DNA of 64,000 nucleotides. It comes from Candidatus Melainabacteria bacterium 17Bon1m. Its GTDB lineage: Bacteria; Cyanobacteriota; Vampirovibrionia; Obscuribacterales; Obscuribacteraceae. The notes beneath the pieces were generated by a model. It did not search any database and was not told where the DNA came from. It saw only the letters and a program-made list of their open reading frames with translations. Location: positions 97,008 to 161,007 of the forward strand of contig JAVLKG010000003.1 of assembly GCA_032128875.1 (NCBI GenBank), given 5' to 3'. Positions 13,759-40,571 of the stretch are shown here, one piece after another. Position 1 is the first letter of the stretch. Every line of letters begins with the position of its first letter. The translations under genes were made by a program, and so were the position numbers.

Positions 13759-14109
13759 GTGGCTATCACAGGCGACACAAAGCGTCAGCTCAGGTCCCGT
13801 TTGGTCAAAGCACAGGGACACCTGTCAGCGGTCATACGCATGATTGACGACGAAAAATATTGCATCGATGTTTTAACTCAGCTCAAAGCAGTTCAAGCTG
13901 CTCTCGATAAAACAGCGCATCTGATGCTGAAGCAGCATTTGGATACTTGCGTTGTCGAAGCCGTTAAGGCGGACGATTCTGCTCGTGTAATGAACGAACT
14001 CTGGCAACTCTTGCGTCGTGGTGAGTCCTCTTTCGAAGCCGAAGAAGAGGGCGAAGATCTGGAGGTAACAAAGTCCCAGCAGAAACCGCATACTCAGTGC
14101 TGTCATTGA
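13759..14109 (+). CDS. csoR: CsoR/RcnR family metal-sensing repressor (Cu(I)-type C-H-C fingerprint)
   Basis: RLVKAQGHLSAVIRMI, YCIDVLTQL, HLDTCV; acidic tail ending HTQCCH. Confidence 0.88.
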   Translation: MAITGDTKRQLRSRLVKAQGHLSAVIRMIDDEKYCIDVLTQLKAVQAALDKTAHLMLKQHLDTCVVEAVKADDSARVMNELWQLLRRGESSFEAEEEGEDLEVTKSQQKPHTQCCH

Positions 14110-14180
14110 GTTTGCAATCTTCAATTTCTCTTGTTTGGTGAGAATTTAGCAGGTCCCCTCGTCCTTTCTGGAGGATTTTT

Positions 14181-14348
14181 ATGCAACCATGTTGTTGTTG
14201 GACCGCATTTTTCAATTCTGTTGTACAAATGCTCCCGTTTTTAGCTGTTTTCGGTATTGTCGGCGAGAGATTTCTCAAAACGTTTTCGAGACCAAGTCCA
14301 AAACCTGTTGAGGAGGTCGTCACCCCGTGTTGTGGGGATGTCCACTAA
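14181..14348 (+). CDS. 55-aa Cys-rich peptide with central hydrophobic helix (absent from ORF track)
   Basis: GGAGGA at 14170-14175, ATG 14181; MQPCCCWTAFFNSVVQMLPFLAVFGIVGERFLKTFSRPSPKPVEEVVTPCCGDVH*; fills the gap between csoR and the next gene. Confidence 0.75.
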   Translation: MQPCCCWTAFFNSVVQMLPFLAVFGIVGERFLKTFSRPSPKPVEEVVTPCCGDVH

Positions 14349-14351
14349 GTT

Positions 14352-15302
14352 TTGAGATCGGTAAAACACAGAAATTTCGTAACTGCCGTCGCTGCTTTTT
14401 CATGCAGCATCATCCCACTGGCAATTTCACCCGCCCATGGCGAAACACCTCTATCCGGCAACGCTGGAGTTAAGAAGGTTTTGCCGGGCGGTTCTGTGTC
14501 TGGGCGTGGCGACAAATTTCAACTTGCTGTCGGCGAACGTGATCGTTGGACTCCGAAAATTCAAGCGAATCCCAAAGACCCCAAGAATTATGTTGGGCGC
14601 GCAAAAGATTACATGTTGCTTTGCGAGGATGAGAAGGCGCTTGCTGATTTTTCTACCGCGCTTTCTCTCGACCCGCGCAACAGAGAAGCGCTTCACGAGC
14701 GAATTCTTTTATTGGGCGACCTGGGGCGAAAAGAAGAAGCGCTGCGAGATTGCAACACTCTGATCAAGGCATATCCGAAGTCGACTTTTGGCTACGAGCA
14801 TAGGTGTATCGTTTATCAGAGCATGCAGAAGTTGAAAGAGGCGCTTGCTGACACTGACGCGGCGCTAAAGATAGAACCGAATGCCGTCACCGTTTGGCAA
14901 TACCGATGCTCGATTTTCATTAATCAAGGTGATTCGGCTGGCGCTCTAAAGTGTCTGACTCGGCTCACTGAGCTGTGTCCCGATAATTCAACGAATTTTT
15001 CAGTGCGTGCCAATTACTACGTGAAACGTAAGGAGTATTCGAAAGCCATTGCTGATTTGACTCAAACAATCAAACTGCGGCAAGGAGAGTTCGAGCCGTT
15101 TATCATGCGTGCTGAGGTGTTCAAAGAAATGAAGGAGTACAAGAAAGCCATTGCCGATTACACTCGAGCAATCGAGATGAACCGATTTCGTGCCGGCTAT
15201 GCGTACAAAGGCCGTGGCGAATGCTATAAGGCATTGGGTGATGGCGCTGCTGCGCAGCGAGATTTCGTGCAGAGCAAAAGTGGAGAGAAGGCATATCGCT
15301 GA
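14352..15302 (+). CDS. Secreted TPR-repeat protein
   Basis: Signal peptide ending SPAHG; repeated ALADFSTALSLDP / KAIADLTQTI / KAIADYTRAI. Confidence 0.85.
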   Translation: MRSVKHRNFVTAVAAFSCSIIPLAISPAHGETPLSGNAGVKKVLPGGSVSGRGDKFQLAVGERDRWTPKIQANPKDPKNYVGRAKDYMLLCEDEKALADFSTALSLDPRNREALHERILLLGDLGRKEEALRDCNTLIKAYPKSTFGYEHRCIVYQSMQKLKEALADTDAALKIEPNAVTVWQYRCSIFINQGDSAGALKCLTRLTELCPDNSTNFSVRANYYVKRKEYSKAIADLTQTIKLRQGEFEPFIMRAEVFKEMKEYKKAIADYTRAIEMNRFRAGYAYKGRGECYKALGDGAAAQRDFVQSKSGEKAYR

Positions 15303-15313
15303 GTTTGGTTTTT

Positions 15314-17131
15314 TTACCGAACAACCAATTTGGGAAGCCTTATCATAAAACTGAATCCGCTAGGCTTCTGGCTGTATGAGCTGATGTTGCCGTAATGCGC
15401 TTCAACGATTTGTTTGCAAATTGAATATTTAAGAAGAGACCGGTTGCTGTGCCCGCTTAGTTTGTGCGTGGGAACGCTCGATTCTATTTGAGCGATTTCC
15501 TCGTCGGTGAGCCCTTCTGCCTGGTCGACAATTCTTACTTGGACAATATCTGCAATTTCGGTAACTTCTATGCGAATGATTGTGTCGCTCGGCGCTGCCT
15601 TTATCGCATTCTCTAGTGATGCTGTAATCGCTTGTGTCATAAGGCGTTTGTCCACATTTACGGTGGCGTCGCCGGAAATATCGAATTTGATATTTTTTGC
15701 TTCGGCGCTTATTTCCGTATTTGAAACCGCCTTCTGCAAGAGTTCGTTCAGCATAGTGGAGGCAGGCTCTGTCTCGATGTTTCGCGCGCTAAGTTTTTGG
15801 AAATCCAACAGGTCACTTACCAATTCGATTAATTGCTCGACCATCTTTGCAGACTTTTCTACCTTGAGTTTTGCATCGGGCGGAAGCGCTCCCTTCGCTC
15901 CTCTCGAGAGAATTGCCAGTGAGATGTTGACAGATGTCAGAGGACTTCTCAGATCGTGGCTGATCATATCGACAAGATCTTGCTTCATCCTTTCTGCGTT
16001 TTTCGTTTCTGTAATGTCGTGTGCGACGCAGAAAAAGGCCTTCTGTGCATCAGACCAGAAGCATGACCAGCGTGTATCAACTACGTCCTTGGAATCACTC
16101 ACTAGTCGCAGATCGAAAACACTGATGTTGGTGGAAGTTCTCGACTCTCTCAGCTTTTCATCGCAGAAAAAGCTCTCGTCCGGGATCGTCAAATCATGTA
16201 AATTTCTTCCGATGAGTTCTTCGGGGCTATAGCCCAGTATGCGGGTCGCGTATGGGTTGGCACTGATGAAGGCGCCATCTTCAGTGAGTGAACAAATGAG
16301 ATCGGTGGCGTTTTCCACCAGTGTTTTTTCGTCTTGCTGAATCTTGTCGAGAGCCGCGGCCGTCGAGTGAAGCAGCCTGTCTAGCGTGGCCAACTCATCT
16401 GTGCCTGTCAGGGCTGGCGGCAGTGGTTGCCCTTTTGCCAACAACATACCGTTGCGACAAGTCAGCCGGAGCGGGCGTTTGACCAATACTATGTACATGT
16501 AGCCGAGTAGCGCAGCCAGCAAGGCGCTCAGAACAAGCGCAACAACCAGCGTAGCCCAGACCCTGCTAAGCAAATCGTGAATCAGTGCAGGTCTTCTGGC
16601 TTGCCGCTCTTCTTCCAGCTCGACTATCGCTGTTGTGGCGGCGGCATACTGGCGGGCGCAGTTGAGGAAGCGATGAAAGTACTTTTGGCGTGAAGTAATA
16701 CGATCTTCATTGTCTTTGAAAGAGAGGTGCTGTGCATCTTTGTACATCTCTTGCAGCTCTTTATGGCAACTGCGCAACTCTTGCATTCTTTGCTCGGATT
16801 CGCTGTCCGTGCGGGCGACATTGAAGAGTCCCTGCAGGTTTTCGTTGAGAGCCTGAATCGGGTTGCTTTCGGTAGGCATTTTGGGAAGTAGCTTATACAT
16901 CACAGTCGGCGCTTCGAACTTGAAATTCAAGTTGTAGATGGTCTCCATAGCATCTCGGTTGAGGACGAATGTTCGGGCGATGATTTCTTGAGACCGTGAT
17001 TCTGTAACGATTTCGTTCTTCAGTGCGAGTAAGTTGTAAGCCAGAAAGACGACTATGATGACCTGCAGCAGCAAGGGGATCATCGTAATGATGATGCCGC
17101 GCCAGAATAGGTTGGGAGTAGGAATATTCAA
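15314..17131 (-). CDS. Membrane PAS sensor histidine kinase; H-box intact, ATP-binding domain degenerate
   Basis: 2 TM, HAMP-like GTDELATL, PAS, SHDLRSPL; N-box ASLENAIKAA, G1 DQAEG, no F-box, G2 region reads NRSLLKY. TTG start overlaps the upstream TGA. Confidence 0.85.
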   Translation of the reverse strand: MNIPTPNLFWRGIIITMIPLLLQVIIVVFLAYNLLALKNEIVTESRSQEIIARTFVLNRDAMETIYNLNFKFEAPTVMYKLLPKMPTESNPIQALNENLQGLFNVARTDSESEQRMQELRSCHKELQEMYKDAQHLSFKDNEDRITSRQKYFHRFLNCARQYAAATTAIVELEEERQARRPALIHDLLSRVWATLVVALVLSALLAALLGYMYIVLVKRPLRLTCRNGMLLAKGQPLPPALTGTDELATLDRLLHSTAAALDKIQQDEKTLVENATDLICSLTEDGAFISANPYATRILGYSPEELIGRNLHDLTIPDESFFCDEKLRESRTSTNISVFDLRLVSDSKDVVDTRWSCFWSDAQKAFFCVAHDITETKNAERMKQDLVDMISHDLRSPLTSVNISLAILSRGAKGALPPDAKLKVEKSAKMVEQLIELVSDLLDFQKLSARNIETEPASTMLNELLQKAVSNTEISAEAKNIKFDISGDATVNVDKRLMTQAITASLENAIKAAPSDTIIRIEVTEIADIVQVRIVDQAEGLTDEEIAQIESSVPTHKLSGHSNRSLLKYSICKQIVEAHYGNISSYSQKPSGFSFMIRLPKLVVR

Positions 17132-18909
17132 TTCGCTGCGCTCCCTTTGAATTTCGGCAAGTCGATGTAAAAACAGCTGCCCCCAATCTGCATCGGCTTG
17201 TATCCGGCTGTTCCACCGTGCGCTTCTGCGATTGATTTCACGAGCGCCAGACCCAATCCGCTGCCCTTTATCTTTGTTTTGTTGACGGATTCGCTTTGGT
17301 TAAACTTCGTGAAAATGAGTTCTCTGTCCTTCTCAGGAATGCCTGGTCCCTGGTCGATAACGCTGATGGTGACAGTGTTAGTGCCTTCTTTGATGTCGAG
17401 AGTAACCGTTGAATTTTTGGGTGAAAACTTAATTGCGTTCGAAAGCAAATTGATCAGAGCTTGTATTAAGCGTCCTTGGTCACCAATAGCGGTGGCATCG
17501 TTTGTGGATTGAACTATCTCAATCGCGTTAGAAGTCGCCAGGGCTTCAAGCGTGAGGCGCGCTTGTCGGCATAGTTCTGATGCGCTTATTGGAAGTTTTT
17601 CAATGTCTCGATCGGCTGTTTCTACATCTTCTAAATCAAGCAGTTCCGATACAAGATCCGATAGGCGCATGAGGTTGTAATTCGCCTTGGCCAGCTCTTC
17701 TTGCGCTGCTTGTGGGATGTTTGCGTGGTTTTCGTTGACGATTGAACCAATGAGCGAGTTGACTTCTTTGAGCGGTGAGCGAAGCTCTTCACTTGCCGTG
17801 TTGAGGAACTGTTGTTTCAAGCGTTGTGCGGCTTTCATCTCGGAGATGTTGTGGGCAACACAGAAATAACTTGCTTGTTCTTTCGAGTAAGAAACCTTCC
17901 AGAGAAATGGTTGTACCGTTCCATCTTTTCGTTTTACATCGTTCTCAAATTCGCATTCACCTGCTGTTTCAGCCAGCTTGCTCAGATTTTGCCGAGCTGC
18001 TTCTTGCGTGTCCTCGGTGATTATGGAAATCAACGAAAGTCCCAAAAGTTCATCCGGAGAGTAAAGCCAGACCTTACTGGCTGCATCTCCCACTGTGATG
18101 AAGCGCAGGCGAGCATCCAAGGTGCAAAGAACATCGCGTGCATTGTCTAAGATCGCGAACTGTTTTTGCCGTGCTTGCTTTATCTCTGTGTGTGCTTGCA
18201 GGAGAACTTTATCTAGCTCGGCAAGCTCGTCGTTGCCGTCAATGGGCGGCGGCAAATCGCGCCCGCCAGCCAAAAGAAGCGCCTTGTTAGCGACATTGCT
18301 CAGCCTGTTGAGAAAACCGGCAGTGAAGTCGCGAACCAGCCAGAGTGAGATGAGAAAGCCGATTGCTGCGCCGCTTGCAAGGATGATGCCTAGCTTCCAG
18401 GTCAGACTTTCAATCTGCCCCGTGTCGGAATTGAGCATGTCGGTTTCGACTTCGATTATGCGCTTGCTGAGCGGTCTTACTTCCATAAACATCGTTATTG
18501 TTGATGCTTTCGGCAGCAGCTTGCCGGCTGGCAAAGTTCGTCCCATGTGCTGGTACAGGCGCAGGCGCACTTGTTTTAACACAGCAATCAAATTGACTCT
18601 AGCGGACTCCGAGTCTCTAATAATGGCGTTCAGCTCTGGGTGTTCGATGGAATTTGCCGTAGTCCACGGAATTTCCAGAGCGCGTATGAGCATGTCTATA
18701 TCGGCGATTTTCTTCTCTGCGTGCGAGTCTTCTTCCTGCGCCAGAGCAAGCAGAGCATCTTCTGCGACCTTTTCGAAATGATGTAACTGAATAAGCGCAT
18801 GCCTGGATCTCTCGAGGCGTTCGTACTCTTTGGTCGCCTCGTATAGCCTGTTTCCCACAATGCCAAGAAAGACAAGCTCAATTACGACTGGTACCAATAC
18901 CAGTATCAT
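17128..18909 (-). CDS. Membrane PAS sensor histidine kinase; ATPase domain intact, phospho-His replaced by Glu
   Basis: 2 TM, GNDELAEL, PAS, H-box reads ASEELRSPL; NLLSNAIKFS, DQGPGIP, IFTKF and GSGLGLAL intact. Confidence 0.85.
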   Translation of the reverse strand: MILVLVPVVIELVFLGIVGNRLYEATKEYERLERSRHALIQLHHFEKVAEDALLALAQEEDSHAEKKIADIDMLIRALEIPWTTANSIEHPELNAIIRDSESARVNLIAVLKQVRLRLYQHMGRTLPAGKLLPKASTITMFMEVRPLSKRIIEVETDMLNSDTGQIESLTWKLGIILASGAAIGFLISLWLVRDFTAGFLNRLSNVANKALLLAGGRDLPPPIDGNDELAELDKVLLQAHTEIKQARQKQFAILDNARDVLCTLDARLRFITVGDAASKVWLYSPDELLGLSLISIITEDTQEAARQNLSKLAETAGECEFENDVKRKDGTVQPFLWKVSYSKEQASYFCVAHNISEMKAAQRLKQQFLNTASEELRSPLKEVNSLIGSIVNENHANIPQAAQEELAKANYNLMRLSDLVSELLDLEDVETADRDIEKLPISASELCRQARLTLEALATSNAIEIVQSTNDATAIGDQGRLIQALINLLSNAIKFSPKNSTVTLDIKEGTNTVTISVIDQGPGIPEKDRELIFTKFNQSESVNKTKIKGSGLGLALVKSIAEAHGGTAGYKPMQIGGSCFYIDLPKFKGSAAN

Positions 18910-19046
18910 TCCTCGGGCTGTCGAATTGAATTGCAGGAGTATCGATCCCGTCTAAGGTTGCCGTTCGGAAACGCTGGAAAGCCAAGAGCCGACCGCGCCT
19001 CGATTCTATGATACAGGCAACTGGGCGAAGATTCGGATGTTGCAGA

Positions 19047-19787
19047 TTAATAGCCGACGACCGAGCCGCGAATGTGGCGAGTATTATCCATGCCTGCTGC
19101 GCGCATCATGCCGCCCACTCCGCCATTTCCGACGAAGAGTCCAAACAATGCCGCTGCGCCTGCTACGCCGACCGCGCGTTGCATCATTTGTGGATCGTTC
19201 ATAAGCGTATTGCCGATGGTCTGGGCGATTCCACCGTTGTTGCTGTTTGTGCCATTGTTTTGCATCATGCCGCCAGCCATGTTGTTCATGCCGTTTTGCT
19301 GCATCATGCCGCTGGACATGTTATTCATTCCACTGTTGGAACCGCTGAACATGCCGCTGTTCATATTATTCATGCCGTTCATGACGTTCATCTGTGCAGA
19401 ACCGTTCATGCTGTTCATACTGTTTGTGCCATTCATAGAACTCGTCGCATTGCTGCTTCCATTGTTCATGGCTCCGTTGCCGAATGCATTACCTTGACCG
19501 AGTTGTGTATTTTGGCTGTTGAGGTTGGTATACAGCCCGTTTTGGGATAGGCTGTTGTTGAATGCGCCATTGGCGTTTGAGTTAAAACCCTGTCCAGGCG
19601 CGCCATTGGGGCTAGGGGCGGTTGGCGAGCCAAATGAATCCCCGCAAATGTCGATACCGTTGAAGTTCTGCGCGGCAACTTGCTCTTCGGCGGTTAGTTG
19701 ACCATTGACTCCTTGAGCTAATGCAGGCGTGTTCATCGCCAGCGAGGCGAGAAGCATTGCTGCGGCTGTTCGAGTGCGGACTGACAT
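19047..19787 (-). CDS. Secreted Asn/Met/Gly-rich low-complexity protein
   Basis: GGAG upstream of ATG 19787; signal peptide ending PALA; (N/G)-M-N-N-M-type repeats; hydrophobic C-terminal segment. Confidence 0.8.
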   Translation of the reverse strand: MSVRTRTAAAMLLASLAMNTPALAQGVNGQLTAEEQVAAQNFNGIDICGDSFGSPTAPSPNGAPGQGFNSNANGAFNNSLSQNGLYTNLNSQNTQLGQGNAFGNGAMNNGSSNATSSMNGTNSMNSMNGSAQMNVMNGMNNMNSGMFSGSNSGMNNMSSGMMQQNGMNNMAGGMMQNNGTNSNNGGIAQTIGNTLMNDPQMMQRAVGVAGAAALFGLFVGNGGVGGMMRAAGMDNTRHIRGSVVGY

Positions 19788-19951
19788 GGTAATTCTCCGG
19801 AGGTGCCAGGAGATCGTATTACTCGCGCGCGCGTCCGTCACTGGTGGAAGTACGTACTTGCGAGCTGGCTTGTACGGGAGTCGCATCCGGCCCCATGGCA
19901 GGGAAGCGCGGACCGCCGGCACGAGCGCTTCCCGTACACAACGGAAGTGAA

Positions 19952-20686
19952 CTATTTCTTCTCTTGCAAATGCGAAAGATACTCGACGATTGAGTCGACT
20001 TGTTCTTTCGCCAACGGACCACCGGCGTCTCCTATAAAACCAGGCATGGTGATTTTTCTGGGGCTGCCGTAGGCCGTTACGTGCCACACGTGCTTCTTGA
20101 TGGCTGGGTCGTTGTAGTCGCGCACGAGGCAAGGGCCGACTCCTCCTTGTGCATCTTGTCCATGACACATGGCGCAATCTGCCTTGTAGAGCTCTTCTCC
20201 GAAAAGTCCAACTCCTTGTGCGACGTGGCAACTGGTGCACTTTTCGTCAGTGAGAAACTTTGCTTTGCTGCGCTCTGAGAGCGCCTTGTGACGGTTTTCC
20301 ACGACCATTGACATAGAGAGAATCACAAGTGGTCGCTCAGGATCGTCTGATGAAATATCTACTGTTTTGGTGATCTCGTCTTGTTTCATCGAGGTGTCCA
20401 ACTGCACTGTCAGAGTTGTTGATTCACCCGGGTTCAAAAGCGTCTTTGGCAGTTTTGGAACGGTGCAGCCACATGTTGAGTAGGCTTTGATTATTTGAAG
20501 GGGCTCAGTACCCTTGTTGAATATCTTGAATTTGTGCTCCAGCTCTATGCCTTCTGCCACGTGACCGAAGTCGAACTCTTCATGGTCGAACGTAATTTGC
20601 GCGCCATTCGCGGGCGGTTTTGGCTTCTCTTCTGCGCATGCGGAGAGAAGAGCAAAAGTGCATATCGCGATCAGAAACTTCCTCAT
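19952..20686 (-). CDS. Lipoprotein: DUF1573 (Ig-like) domain fused to a di-heme cytochrome c region
   Basis: Lipobox LLSA-C; FDFG..FKIFNKG.EPL.I..STCGCT; CTSCH and CAMCH heme motifs; distal MPGF. Confidence 0.85.
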   Translation of the reverse strand: MRKFLIAICTFALLSACAEEKPKPPANGAQITFDHEEFDFGHVAEGIELEHKFKIFNKGTEPLQIIKAYSTCGCTVPKLPKTLLNPGESTTLTVQLDTSMKQDEITKTVDISSDDPERPLVILSMSMVVENRHKALSERSKAKFLTDEKCTSCHVAQGVGLFGEELYKADCAMCHGQDAQGGVGPCLVRDYNDPAIKKHVWHVTAYGSPRKITMPGFIGDAGGPLAKEQVDSIVEYLSHLQEKK

Positions 20687-20817
20687 TCACCGATGATATG
20701 TGCAAGCGGGGCGCCCCGCAACCCTGGGTCGGGGAGGCAAGACAGCGTGCTTGTGCTGGGAGTATCCTTTGGTTTAATTCGAGGATACTAAACGGACTAA
20801 TAGAATTTAGGCTTAAA

Positions 20818-37676: not shown

Positions 37677-38351
37677 TCAGCCTGTAAACCTGTATCCGAA
37701 GCCATGCACATTTTGAATCAGTGACTCTTCCTCGGGACTGTCGAGTTTTCTGCGCAGGTTTTTTATGTGAGTTCGAACGGTGTCCGGCGCAGCTTCTTCT
37801 TCTGCTACCCATACGTGATTCAGCAAATCATCGAGGCTGAAGACGCGATCTTTGTTGCGCATGAAAAATTCCAGCAGGGCAAATTCTTTTACTGTTAGTT
37901 CAATTGCTGCACCATATTTGGTGACCGAACGTTTTCCTTCGTCGAGTACAAGACCCTTGGTTTTCATAACCTGAGCTTGCAAAGGTCTTTGTGCTCGCCC
38001 GACAAGCGATCGGACTCTCAATGTTAGCTCTTTCAAGTGAAAGGGTTTCGTCAAATAGTCGTCTGCCCCGGAATCAAGCCCCTGGACTTTCTCTGCGGGC
38101 AATGAGCGGCCCGTCAACATGAGGATGGCGGCATTTTCGCCTGATTGTCTTAGCTCTGTGCAAAAGTCGACACCAGTGCCGTCGGGAAGGCCCCAATCCA
38201 GTACGATAAGGTCGAATTTTCTATCTTTCAGAGACCGACGCGCGTCGGCGATAGTTGAGCAACTTGTGACTTCGTGTCCCTCGTGCTCAATGGCTCGCTG
38301 AATCTCGGATAGTAACGTTTCGTCGTCTTCTACAAGCAATATGTTAGGCAT
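37677..38351 (-). CDS. OmpR-family response regulator
   Basis: ILLVEDD, DWGLPDG, GLDSGADDYLTKPF, VRTHIKNLRRKL, VHGFGYR. Confidence 0.95.
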   Translation of the reverse strand: MPNILLVEDDETLLSEIQRAIEHEGHEVTSCSTIADARRSLKDRKFDLIVLDWGLPDGTGVDFCTELRQSGENAAILMLTGRSLPAEKVQGLDSGADDYLTKPFHLKELTLRVRSLVGRAQRPLQAQVMKTKGLVLDEGKRSVTKYGAAIELTVKEFALLEFFMRNKDRVFSLDDLLNHVWVAEEEAAPDTVRTHIKNLRRKLDSPEEESLIQNVHGFGYRFTG

Positions 38352-38428: not shown

Positions 38429-38920
38429 TTAATAATTGAAAGTCTTCGCCAGCGAGTTCCAGGCGCGGTCGTACCAGTGTTCTTCTTGTTCTTGCTGGGC
38501 TACGTACGCGGCTTTCTTCTGGGCGACTTTGTCCTCAAATGCCTCATCTTGCTGGACTCCGAAATCCAGTACTCCATCTTCCTTGTCATGGGCTTTGGCT
38601 GCAGCTAGTTTCGCATCGATAACTGCTTGCTCTTCCTTCTTTTGAATGATTGCCTGTTCTTCCTTTTTCGCGATTATCGCTTGTTCTTCCTTTTGTTGAA
38701 CTATGGCAGCGGCCTGTTTTTCTTTGACTGCTGACCCGGCAAGAAGGTGACCTTCTTCATCGGTGAGCTGCATGGTGCCGAGTTGTTGACTTGCTGTATC
38801 AGTCGCATTCATTTTTTTCAGGTAGACGGCTCTAGACTCTTCCGGAGTCATTGCGCTGAAATTTGCAGAATCTTCTTTTGCTAGAACATTTTTCTTTTCA
38901 ATAATTTCGAGATTGTTCAT
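38429..38920 (-). CDS. Hypothetical protein with KEEQAII repeats
   Basis: AGGAG before ATG 38920; KEEQAII/KEEQAVI repeated three times. Confidence 0.75.
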   Translation of the reverse strand: MNNLEIIEKKNVLAKEDSANFSAMTPEESRAVYLKKMNATDTASQQLGTMQLTDEEGHLLAGSAVKEKQAAAIVQQKEEQAIIAKKEEQAIIQKKEEQAVIDAKLAAAKAHDKEDGVLDFGVQQDEAFEDKVAQKKAAYVAQQEQEEHWYDRAWNSLAKTFNY

Positions 38921-39026
38921 GAAGGCTCCTTCTGCCAAGCAACGCAATAAGCAGGCTGAATGCTCATTGCATTGCCGACAGTTAGTAAATTGGAAGGGGG
39001 CGGGTGGGTTGCCTTGTGCTTACAAA

Positions 39027-40571
39027 TTACGCAGAGTTTGGGAAATTTTCCGGGAGTGTCTCTGGGTTGGTTGTCTGTGTATTTTTCTCGCCTTGCCTGG
39101 GAATCCAAAACCAAAACTTGCTGCCCTTTCCGGTTTCGCTTTCGACTCCAATTCGTCCACCGTGCGCCTCTACAAAGACCTTGGCGATGGAGAGCCCGAG
39201 CCCTGAACCTTTCTTCTTTCGGGAGTCATCCTTTTCCACCTGGTGAAAGCGATCGAAGATTTTCTTTCTTTGTTCTTTCGGCACGCCGCGCCCTTCATCT
39301 ATTACTTCAAAATCGACTTTATGTCCTTCGGGTTTTGCAACTATAGTTATCGTGCTGTCTGCCGGTGAAAATTTGATGGCGTTAGTCACCAGGTTGGTGA
39401 TCACCCGCAAAATCCTGATGCGGTCCCCGTACACCTTATCTGCCGAACACTCGATCTTGATTTCGATTCCGGCTCGATCTGCCATTGCTTCCACGACATC
39501 GGCGACCTCGTCCAGCATGTCACGAATGTCAAACTCTTCCATTTGCAGCTTGATGCCCTGACTTTCTGCTGTTTCAAGATCGAGCAAATCAGTAATTAGA
39601 TTCATCAACATATTAATGCTGCGTTCTGCACTGTTTAGCGTGGGCATTGCTTCGTCCGGAAGTTCGCATACGATGCCGGATGCTAATGAATCGATGGCCA
39701 GCACGAGTGAGGAAAGAGGTGTGCGCATGTCGTGCGTAATCATATGGAAAAAATCTTGCTTCAACTGTTGCAGCTTTTCCTTTTCGACTTCTGCACCTTC
39801 GACGTACTCAGCCATTTCGTGGAAGATTCGGTCGAGCTGCGCGAGTTCGTCATTGCGCGACGTTGGAGGCAGGAGCGGTTCTTTGCGTGCGAAACGCAAA
39901 GTGTTTTCCATTAGATGGCTGATGCCGCTGTGTATGCCGCGAATGAAGTAGGTAAAAAGCAATGCGGCCAAGAGAATGCTGATGATGACGCCTGATATGG
40001 TCACGATCATGATCATATTGCGCGCTTCGCTAATTGCTTGTTTTTCTTGCTCTGCGCGCCGTTGCCAGGGTTCTCTGAATGCAACCATGTCGTCGCCCAG
40101 ATATTTGATCATCATTTGTAAGTGGTGAAACTGCACAAGATTGCCGCGCAGACCAGCGATGCCACCTTCAGATAGCGTGGGGTTTTCAAAGTTTTGGCAG
40201 AGGTTGAGTAGAGCATTGGCGCGTGTGCGCATGCGAAGCAGTTTTGGAAGATGCGAGGGATCGTCTTTCTCTAGAAGCTTGGCTAGCGCGTGGTGTTCTA
40301 CGTCTATTTTGCTGATGTGAAATCTGGTGTGCAGATCTTTGTTAGGAAAAACTCTCGTTCCGAAATAACCAACGGTTAGATCCATCACTGCAAGCCACAT
40401 TTCATTGGTGTGCATGATGATTTCATTGGTGTGAATTTGCGTTTGCAGCTTCTTTTCGTAGTCTTGTTGCAAGACGAAAAGAGTGCCTGCGAAGGCGAGT
40501 TCAAACAAGAGCGGCACAGAAATCAGAATGAGACCGCTAGAAAAAATTGTTGGTCTCAAGCTCAATTTCAT
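39027..40571 (-). CDS. Membrane sensor histidine kinase (intact)
   Basis: 2 TM, NDELAQL, THDMRTPL, NLVTNAIKFS, DEGRG, IFDRF, GSGLGL. Confidence 0.95.
   Translation of the reverse strand: MKLSLRPTIFSSGLILISVPLLFELAFAGTLFVLQQDYEKKLQTQIHTNEIIMHTNEMWLAVMDLTVGYFGTRVFPNKDLHTRFHISKIDVEHHALAKLLEKDDPSHLPKLLRMRTRANALLNLCQNFENPTLSEGGIAGLRGNLVQFHHLQMMIKYLGDDMVAFREPWQRRAEQEKQAISEARNMIMIVTISGVIISILLAALLFTYFIRGIHSGISHLMENTLRFARKEPLLPPTSRNDELAQLDRIFHEMAEYVEGAEVEKEKLQQLKQDFFHMITHDMRTPLSSLVLAIDSLASGIVCELPDEAMPTLNSAERSINMLMNLITDLLDLETAESQGIKLQMEEFDIRDMLDEVADVVEAMADRAGIEIKIECSADKVYGDRIRILRVITNLVTNAIKFSPADSTITIVAKPEGHKVDFEVIDEGRGVPKEQRKKIFDRFHQVEKDDSRKKKGSGLGLSIAKVFVEAHGGRIGVESETGKGSKFWFWIPRQGEKNTQTTNPETLPENFPNSA

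Follow-up and report, generated by a model that had tools for sequence, protein, structure and literature searches.

In a stretch of 64,000 nucleotides from Candidatus Melainabacteria bacterium 17Bon1m (assembly GCA_032128875.1, contig JAVLKG010000003.1, positions 97,008 to 161,007; hereafter the window, in whose own numbering positions are given), two paralogous genes for transmembrane sensor histidine kinases, which we named alpha and beta, lie head to tail on the minus strand, with alpha first (Table 1). Alpha has an intact ATP-binding (CA) domain and has lost the phospho-acceptor His of its DHp domain, while beta has kept the His and carries a degenerate ATP domain. The 4-nt overlap between the two open reading frames (ORFs), already pointed out in the initial annotation of this DNA, is present as described, and the overlap of the beta start with the alpha stop suggests that translation of the two genes is coupled. 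A Shine-Dalgarno-like GGGAG, located within the 3' end of alpha and 9 nt 5' of the beta TTG, is a putative ribosome-binding site for beta.

Alpha contains two hydrophobic segments around a helical sensor region of ~150 amino acids (aa), followed by a PAS domain (residues 252-352), the His-less DHp domain and the intact CA domain. Beta is laid out in the same manner, with two hydrophobic segments, a helical sensor region, a PAS domain (residues 270-373), a DHp domain with His392 and a pseudo-CA domain. The order TM-sensor-TM-HAMP-PAS-DHp-CA, proposed earlier for both proteins, therefore held for the PAS domain but not for HAMP, which gave no Pfam match at E<=0.1 in either; a HAMP domain is presumed in both because Pfam detects one at the same position in relatives. 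The two proteins share 30% identity over the C-terminal 384 residues. Between residue 210 and the H box the offset between them stays at 18 residues, a figure set aside as a test of heterodimer compatibility because the boundary of the second transmembrane segment is unclear.

In order to compare the two proteins with canonical kinases, we aligned them to the Pfam hidden Markov models (HMMs) of HisKA and HATPase_c. Alpha scored 94.6 bits against HATPase_c and 20.2 bits against HisKA, under the Pfam gathering cut-off of 26.9, while beta scored 47.3 bits against HATPase_c and 47.2 bits against HisKA, above the same cut-off, which is the contrast that had been claimed from the letters. In a pairwise alignment, S373-E374-E375-L-R-S-P-L of alpha falls over S391-H392-D393-L-R-S-P-L of beta, placing a glutamate in the acceptor column. 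The sequence ASEELRSPL with its GAA codon (17788-17790), as well as the alpha motifs NLLSNAIKFS, DQGPG, IFTKF and GSGLGL, were confirmed as first read, IFTKF being the F box, so that all four ATP boxes (N, G1, F and G2) are present. A substitute acceptor His in the alpha DHp (within NENHAN) was considered and rejected, as among 10 orthologues only the window genome has a His there.

For beta, the earlier reading of SHDLRSPL, DQAEG, no F box (by alignment and motif reading) and NRSLLKY in place of G2 was correct, with one qualification: the Asn of the N box (ENAIK) and the Asp of G1 are still there, and the lesion therefore comprises the lid (F and G2) and the first glycine of G1, not the whole ATP site. 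In an AlphaFold2 model of beta (mean predicted local distance difference test score, pLDDT, 80.1) the CA fold is retained; pLDDT drops below 50 at residues 552-563 of the lid, and the pseudo-CA probably keeps a structural or regulatory role. The nearest solved relatives of beta by sequence in the PDB are ordinary kinases, namely the VicK-like 4i5s (E 4e-16) and HK853; DivL (4q20, E 8.3e-08) was also among the matches. Thus alpha fails on the H box and the HisKA score and beta on G1, F and G2, and the pair jointly presents all the features of a HisKA kinase. On these motifs, we propose His392 of beta as the sole phospho-acceptor of the pair.

We searched 40 related genomes for orthologues and aligned the longer stretches; close orthologues of alpha were found in the same genus. 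The alpha/beta pair occurs with the same lesions in 9 other related genomes, and both frames are open in every orthologous copy obtained. The acceptor position in 10 alpha orthologues is Glu in eight, Asp in one, Gln in one and His in none, which makes it acidic in 9/10 of the group. On the beta side, the H box MISHDLRSPLTSV was found in 9/9 orthologues, and so was the degenerate lid, as [NGS]RSLLK[YFL]; G1 varied among DQGEG, DEGEG, DDGEG, DWGAP, DSGER and DQGEW. In one genome the unit is repeated in tandem, alpha-beta-alpha-beta, with the same lesion pattern in both copies. The lesions are not miscalls, because they recur in orthologues of 9 other genomes, as had been anticipated for the two-substitution codon. 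Selection was measured as the ratio of nonsynonymous to synonymous substitution rates (dN/dS, Nei-Gojobori) in two comparisons with unsaturated dS. Alpha gave 0.08 and 0.09 over the whole gene, 0.11 and 0.09 in the His-less DHp and 0.13 and 0.21 in the CA; beta gave 0.06 and 0.09 over the whole gene, 0.05 and 0.04 in the DHp and 0.12 and 0.12 in the pseudo-CA. Orthologous pairs thus keep both adjacency and the reciprocal pattern, with dN/dS of 0.04-0.21 across domains, and the two proteins are, by this measure, under purifying selection, both "broken" domains included.

Glu374 was also considered as a selected phosphomimic. As a general rule this was rejected, since the residue found at that site in other His-less members is N, D, S, A, Q, G, F or R; within the alpha orthologue group only, Glu374 may be such a phosphomimic.

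The initial annotation had presented the pair as a one-off. Instead, it belongs to a family of kinase pairs, the majority with both members intact. A census of the window genome with a purpose-built DHp-CA profile yielded 128 kinase-like ORFs with 133 modules. In a first tree, built from 42 kinases of 570-660 aa from the window genome plus orthologues, upstream members of coupled pairs, and only these, formed an alpha clade (support by the Shimodaira-Hasegawa-like approximate likelihood ratio test, SH-aLRT, 100), and downstream members, again only these, formed a beta clade (SH-aLRT 98). The window genome has six alpha-beta pairs, whose junctions overlap by 4 nt in four cases and by 1 nt in two, and in four of these pairs neither member has a lesion; one intact pair lies on C11 at 180398-184035. 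A wider tree, for which 115 sequences were taken from one relative of the same family and 13 genomes of the genus, separated 55 alpha rows (SH-aLRT 100) from 60 beta rows (SH-aLRT 100), with mirrored sub-groups. An alpha-class gene lies directly upstream of 49/49 testable beta-class genes, that is, of all those among 59 distinct genes with at least 600 nt of upstream sequence, the other 10 being at contig edges. When public genome contigs, close relatives excluded, were scanned with the alpha alignment, the patterns were generic; the matches comprised 80 ordinary kinase loci spread over many phyla and only one full-length relative (31% identity), and were of no help on the question of pairing.

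Intact members of the two classes differ in their H boxes, those of the alpha type often reading ASHDLRAPL and those of the beta type ISHDLRSPL. Thr or Asn is usual at the HisKA position that is Ala in ASHDLRAPL, and is linked to phosphatase activity. Judging from these motifs, alpha and beta subunits may have differed functionally before the lesions arose.

To see how lesions are distributed over such pairs, we pooled loci, removed duplicates and obtained 74 same-strand kinase-kinase junctions, 66 of them with all four states readable; two beta-to-alpha joints inside gene clusters were dropped, leaving 64. Both members are intact at 41 junctions. At 15, the His is missing upstream, where the CA is intact, and has been kept downstream, where the CA is degenerate or absent; at 7 the order is reversed, with the His and a degenerate CA upstream and a His-less member with an intact CA downstream. 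A His-less member next to a partner with intact CA was found at 0/64 junctions, and both lesions in one member likewise at 0/64. In other words, wherever a member has lost its His (22/22 junctions), its partner has a His and a degenerate or missing ATP domain. On the tree of upstream members, the His state changed at least 6 times and the CA state at least 7 times, counts to be read with the fact that the H-box columns (9/210) were included in that tree. There were 5 independent contrasts when supported branches alone were counted and 6 over all branches; every one was concordant, and the sign test gave a p of ~0.06, the lowest value attainable with 5 pairs.

The reversed arrangement is well represented by a mirror pair in the window genome (L025 in Table 1). 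Its alpha member has the His and gives no HATPase_c match, while in its beta member, which has an intact ATP domain and gives no HisKA match, Ser stands in place of the His. This polarity, with Ser or Ala at the beta His site, is conserved in 5/5 full orthologous pairs, and at L025 a divergently transcribed response-regulator gene (C5 95874-96578) lies 76 bp upstream. Further reciprocal cases come from the genus itself as well as from four more genera of its family. In one other genus, the two units are fused into a 1233-aa protein with HAMP-PAS-HisKA-HATPase_c twice over, in which Phe occupies the first His site and the second ATP domain is degenerate; a fused protein of 1239 aa, from that same genus, has both units intact.

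The same complementarity appears in a second family of the window genome, with members of ~500 aa. Here, in one gene pair, a His-bearing member without CA is followed by a member with Arg in place of His and with CA. In each of four fused two-unit proteins (887-1003 aa), the ATP domain is intact in the unit whose His site is occupied by E, R, A or Q, and the unit that has the His has an ATP domain that is degenerate or missing; a response-regulator gene adjoins three of the four. Another gene pair of this family has a CA lesion only.

Table 1. Features of the alpha/beta locus (window positions) and kinase loci elsewhere (contig positions; G000, window genome)
Feature	Position	Strand	Remarks
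Gene alpha	17128..18909	minus	ORF, 593 aa, ATG start; upstream sensor-kinase paralogue
Gene beta	15314..17131	minus	ORF, 605 aa, TTG start; downstream sensor-kinase paralogue
4-nt overlap TTGA	17128..17131	minus	beta TTG start over alpha TGA stop
GGGAG, Shine-Dalgarno-like	17141..17145	minus	putative ribosome-binding site
Alpha E374 codon GAA	17788..17790	minus	phospho-acceptor His column; two substitutions from CAY
Alpha N box NLLSNAIKFS	17422..17451	minus	residues 487-496; identical in 10/10 orthologues
Alpha G1 box DQGPG	17341..17355	minus	residues 519-523; D-x-GPG in 10/10 orthologues
Alpha G2 box GSGLGL	17248..17265	minus	residues 549-554; G[ST]GLGL in 10/10 orthologues
Beta His392 codon	15956..15958	minus	ISHDLRSPL; S391, H392 and D393 nearly invariant
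Beta degenerate G1 DQAEG	15512..15526	minus	residues 536-540; variable in orthologues
Beta NRSLLKY	15425..15445	minus	residues 563-569; at G2 (GxGxGL) position; conserved degenerate lid
Mirror pair L025	G000, C5 96654-100318		reversed polarity
~500-aa family, L021	G000, C1 32680-35691
~500-aa family, L022	G000, C1 524832-527495
~500-aa family, L023	G000, C18 14568-17552
~500-aa family, L024	G000, C12 35723-38725
~500-aa family, L026	G000, C16 10151-12636
~500-aa family, L027	G000, C1 471151-474077
Fused protein L248	G024, C12		1233 aa; alpha/beta architecture
Fused protein L249	G024, C11		1239 aa; alpha/beta architecture
Lone His-less ORF	G000, C2 1098728-1100602
Lone His-less ORF	G000, C11 4452-5648
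Lone His-less ORF	G000, C12 133347-134897		two of the three also with degenerate G1 and G2

HisKA kinases dimerise through the DHp domain, and many of them autophosphorylate in trans; in such a dimer there are two composite sites, in each of which the ATP domain of one chain is combined with the His of the other. Once one His is lost from a heterodimer, the ATP domain of the partner becomes useless and is free to decay. Phosphorylation in trans therefore predicts lesions on opposite subunits and phosphorylation in cis predicts both in one, and since the cis pattern was found in 0/22 cases, the data argue for a complex of alpha and beta. The complementarity proposed in the initial annotation, with ATP binding supplied by alpha and the His by beta, is supported by conservation, by the pairing and by the reciprocity at 22/22 junctions. 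From the sequences we consider it fairly probable that alpha and beta form a hetero-complex, probably a DHp heterodimer, in which the ATP domain of alpha phosphorylates His392 of beta in trans. Each protein may be inactive on its own and the two sensors may act as an AND gate, as the initial annotation also suggested.

The mechanism that we have in mind would run as follows. The ancestors of alpha and beta would have been two paralogous transmembrane sensor kinases that had long formed a pair, always encoded as a translationally coupled upstream/downstream unit, and of the two composite active sites that the ancestral complex had, the present pair would have kept one. The DHp helices of the two proteins would bring them together, a heterodimeric four-helix bundle being the most likely form, the alpha ATP domain would phosphorylate His392 across the subunit interface, and phosphorylated beta would hand the phosphoryl group to a response regulator encoded away from the pair. 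We infer that alpha and beta bind each other, that they do so as a heterodimer, that phosphorylation runs in trans and that a regulator acts downstream, and structure prediction lends weak support to their binding. A predicted complex of alpha 352-593 with beta 369-605 scored 0.53, compared with 0.00 for the best of 3 controls; at least 79% of contacts agreed between runs and the pLDDT of the partner was at least 79. The mark applied is reached by 58/80 solved complexes and by 2/110 mismatched pairs, and scores at or above it that do not exceed 0.60 comprise only 7 of the 80 solved complexes but both of the passing mismatches.

Heterodimerisation may be older than the lesions. It is conceivable, and we put it forward tentatively, as somewhat short of an even chance, that it is ancestral in the large transmembrane sensor-kinase family of this lineage, whose alpha and beta subunits differ in their sensor domains, the intact pairs being heterodimers too, and that one of the two composite trans-acting sites has been lost repeatedly, now on one side and now on the other. 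If so, the dimer would be fixed in an asymmetric state through which ordinary homodimers pass only transiently, with one ATP domain parked as a structural pseudo-domain by the His-less helix and the other doing all the catalysis.

Several points weigh against an alpha-beta kinase complex as set out above. The junctions are not independent rows, many being orthologues, the survey was seeded with beta as the query, and the independent contrasts are 5 to 6; the calls of degenerate CA follow our own motif criteria on the HMM alignment. At one of the 64 junctions a CA lesion is the only one. Another subfamily of the window genome includes three kinase-like ORFs with Asn in the His column and no kinase neighbour (lone ORFs in Table 1), showing that loss of the His is not always accompanied by a partner. 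The N-box Asn and the G1 Asp are retained in 7/9 beta orthologues, and residual nucleotide binding by beta is possible; both beta copies of the tandem-unit genome are without the N-box Asn. The complex prediction is compatible with a heterodimer or with homodimers, and the pass may reflect memory of solved kinase dimers. As for an output regulator, the window genome has 129 receiver-containing ORFs, none of them closer than 8 kb to the pair, in agreement with the earlier statement that no response regulator adjoins it. Finally, in three runs labelled RNA-Seq, the window region 14000-20800 is covered by single contigs of 13-23 kb, each spanning the full 6.8 kb. These runs share a sample with a possible source of the window DNA and the contigs look like DNA carry-over into RNA libraries, so that they show neither transcription nor co-transcription of alpha and beta.

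The reciprocal lesions and their conservation require phosphorylation between chains and leave its geometry unfixed. Alpha and beta could each form homodimers, and the ATP domain of alpha could phosphorylate His392 on a separate beta dimer, in membrane association or by transient contact, in the way that CheA4 phosphorylates CheA3 or LadS feeds GacS. Split kinases between different proteins are documented (PMC3591291), and in the four fused proteins of the ~500-aa family each unit has a DHp of its own and the ATP domain must serve the His of the other DHp. The comparative data fit this arrangement equally well, save for the expected co-assembly of paralogous DHp helices made together. However, it is on that expectation, for close paralogues encoded by overlapping genes, and on the strict 1:1 pairing (49/49) and the two-unit fusions, which fit a stoichiometric heteromer, that we regard separate homodimers as unlikely.

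It could also be that no phosphoryl group flows from alpha to beta. Beta would then be a phosphotransferase or phosphatase like ChpT or Spo0B, fed by another kinase or receiver, and alpha a DivL-like pseudokinase whose part is purely regulatory, through binding of beta, a regulator or nucleotide. Beta does combine a His-bearing DHp with a pseudo-CA whose fold is kept in the AlphaFold2 model, this pseudo-CA is under as much constraint as a true one (omega 0.12), suggesting a role of its own, and DivL is among the PDB matches of beta, as given above. Regulatory pseudo-histidine kinases are in print, namely DivL (PMC4211667) and PsmA (PMC12963549), and the want of a regulator adjoining alpha and beta would agree with such roles. 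Yet the ATP-binding motifs of alpha are invariant in 10/10 orthologues, which is hard to explain without phosphotransfer and argues against a purely non-catalytic alpha. Moreover, loss of the His together with loss of the partner CA, 22/22 and in both polarities, would have to be a coincidence, and a third kinase beyond the pair would be needed; we judge this to be quite unlikely. That the genes are decaying relics of a duplicated kinase without joint function, or that the lesions are sequencing errors, is very improbable and was rejected, for although each protein is without a feature that textbooks hold essential, the orthologues of 9 other genomes share the lesions in frames that are always open, whole-gene dN/dS is 0.06-0.09 and the degenerate lid (RSLLK) is itself conserved (9/9).

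The heteromeric kinase that we favour resembles several known systems and differs from each. In laboratory complementation with EnvZ, NtrB and CheA, mutants of the His site and of the ATP site, dead alone, reportedly autophosphorylate in mixed dimers, and alpha and beta look like a natural, fixed version of this experiment; the former are engineered alleles of one gene, whereas the latter are two diverged genes with different sensor regions, under selection. In Mycobacterium tuberculosis, Rv0600c and Rv0601c (HK1/HK2) are said to carry ATP binding and the acceptor His on two adjacent genes. These would be one kinase gene in two domain-sized pieces, unlike alpha and beta, which are full-length paralogues with point-type lesions. 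ChpT and Spo0B combine a His on a DHp-like helical hairpin with an ATP-domain fold without a working lid; they are soluble and sensor-less and receive phosphate from a receiver domain. Beta is like them in having His392 on a DHp and a degenerate ATP-domain fold (in the model), but it differs in its transmembrane segments, its sensor region and its PAS domain, and in that a kinase-competent neighbour is obligatory.

Among the systems described in print is CheA3/CheA4 of Rhodobacter sphaeroides, of which neither protein autophosphorylates alone and the mixture yields phosphorylated CheA3 (PMC3591291). The split-kinase concept is thus already known from CheA3/CheA4, and the same source extends it as a prediction to HisKA-only proteins, stating that 3.66% of the HisKA proteins in SMART have no ATPase domain and could be split kinases. 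As in CheA3/CheA4, ATP-dependent kinase activity and phospho-acceptor reside on separate polypeptides, in alpha and beta at the level of motifs. CheA3 and CheA4 are soluble, CheA-class proteins that have lost whole domains, whereas alpha and beta are full-length transmembrane HisKA-class proteins that keep both domains, one degenerate in each, and are paralogues of each other from a family of mostly intact pairs. In Pseudomonas aeruginosa, the sensor kinases RetS and GacS associate via their transmitter regions, and one controls the phosphorylation of the other (PMC12189002). RetS inhibits GacS and both are unlinked hybrid kinases, while the genes of alpha and beta are coupled and we propose a contact that is activating and obligatory. 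DivL of Caulobacter, in which the acceptor His is replaced, reportedly senses a regulator's phosphorylation state and acts through another kinase (PMC4211667). Alpha shares the replacement with DivL, which, as there described, has no partner with a reciprocal lesion; alpha has every ATP-binding motif. Our literature searches turned up split CheA kinases, RetS-GacS, DivL, PsmA and plant ethylene receptors; full-length HisKA sensors that are paralogues, form a natural pair and carry reciprocal lesions were not among the finds, although coverage was incomplete and absence from print is not established.

Sensor histidine kinases are generally treated as homodimers, and paralogues are regarded as shielded from mixing with one another. 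Coupled alpha/beta kinases conserved as a family would challenge this view, as their pattern of losses would only be sensible with shared active sites. If our reading is true, these proteins would be natural heteromeric sensor kinases with two different input domains, they would hold a natural evolutionary record on trans versus cis phosphorylation, and their complexes with one active site would be simple objects for testing asymmetry, signal integration and partner specificity. If heterodimers are indeed ancestral, the recurrent reciprocal lesions would amount to a natural genetic proof of trans-autophosphorylation and provide a ready system for asymmetry and two-input sensing. For annotation, kinase-like genes without the His or without the G2 box may be halves of a working enzyme and should be treated neither as dead nor as ordinary kinases.

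Elsewhere in the window, the kinase at 39027-40571 (minus strand) had been used as an internal control for the two lesions. It has all the motifs, as stated, but belongs to a different family, of ~500 aa and without PAS. On its 3' side, also on the minus strand, lie a 172-aa ORF rich in Glu, Lys and Gln (38429-38947) and then an OmpR-type response regulator (37677-38351).

A scan of positions 14900-19400 for promoters and terminators was uninformative, with 0 promoter-like sites and 5 terminator-like sites against a mean of 6.2 in shuffled sequence. Upstream of alpha, on the minus strand, are a low-complexity ORF rich in Asn, Gly and Met (within 19047-20240), with no Pfam match, and a gene for a DUF1573 and cytochrome c fusion protein (19952-20686), both of them syntenic in the orthologous loci. 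On the plus strand, a gene for a CsoR-type metal-sensitive repressor (13759-14109; Pfam Trns_repr_metal, 84.5 bits) is located between pyrB and the gene of a TPR protein.

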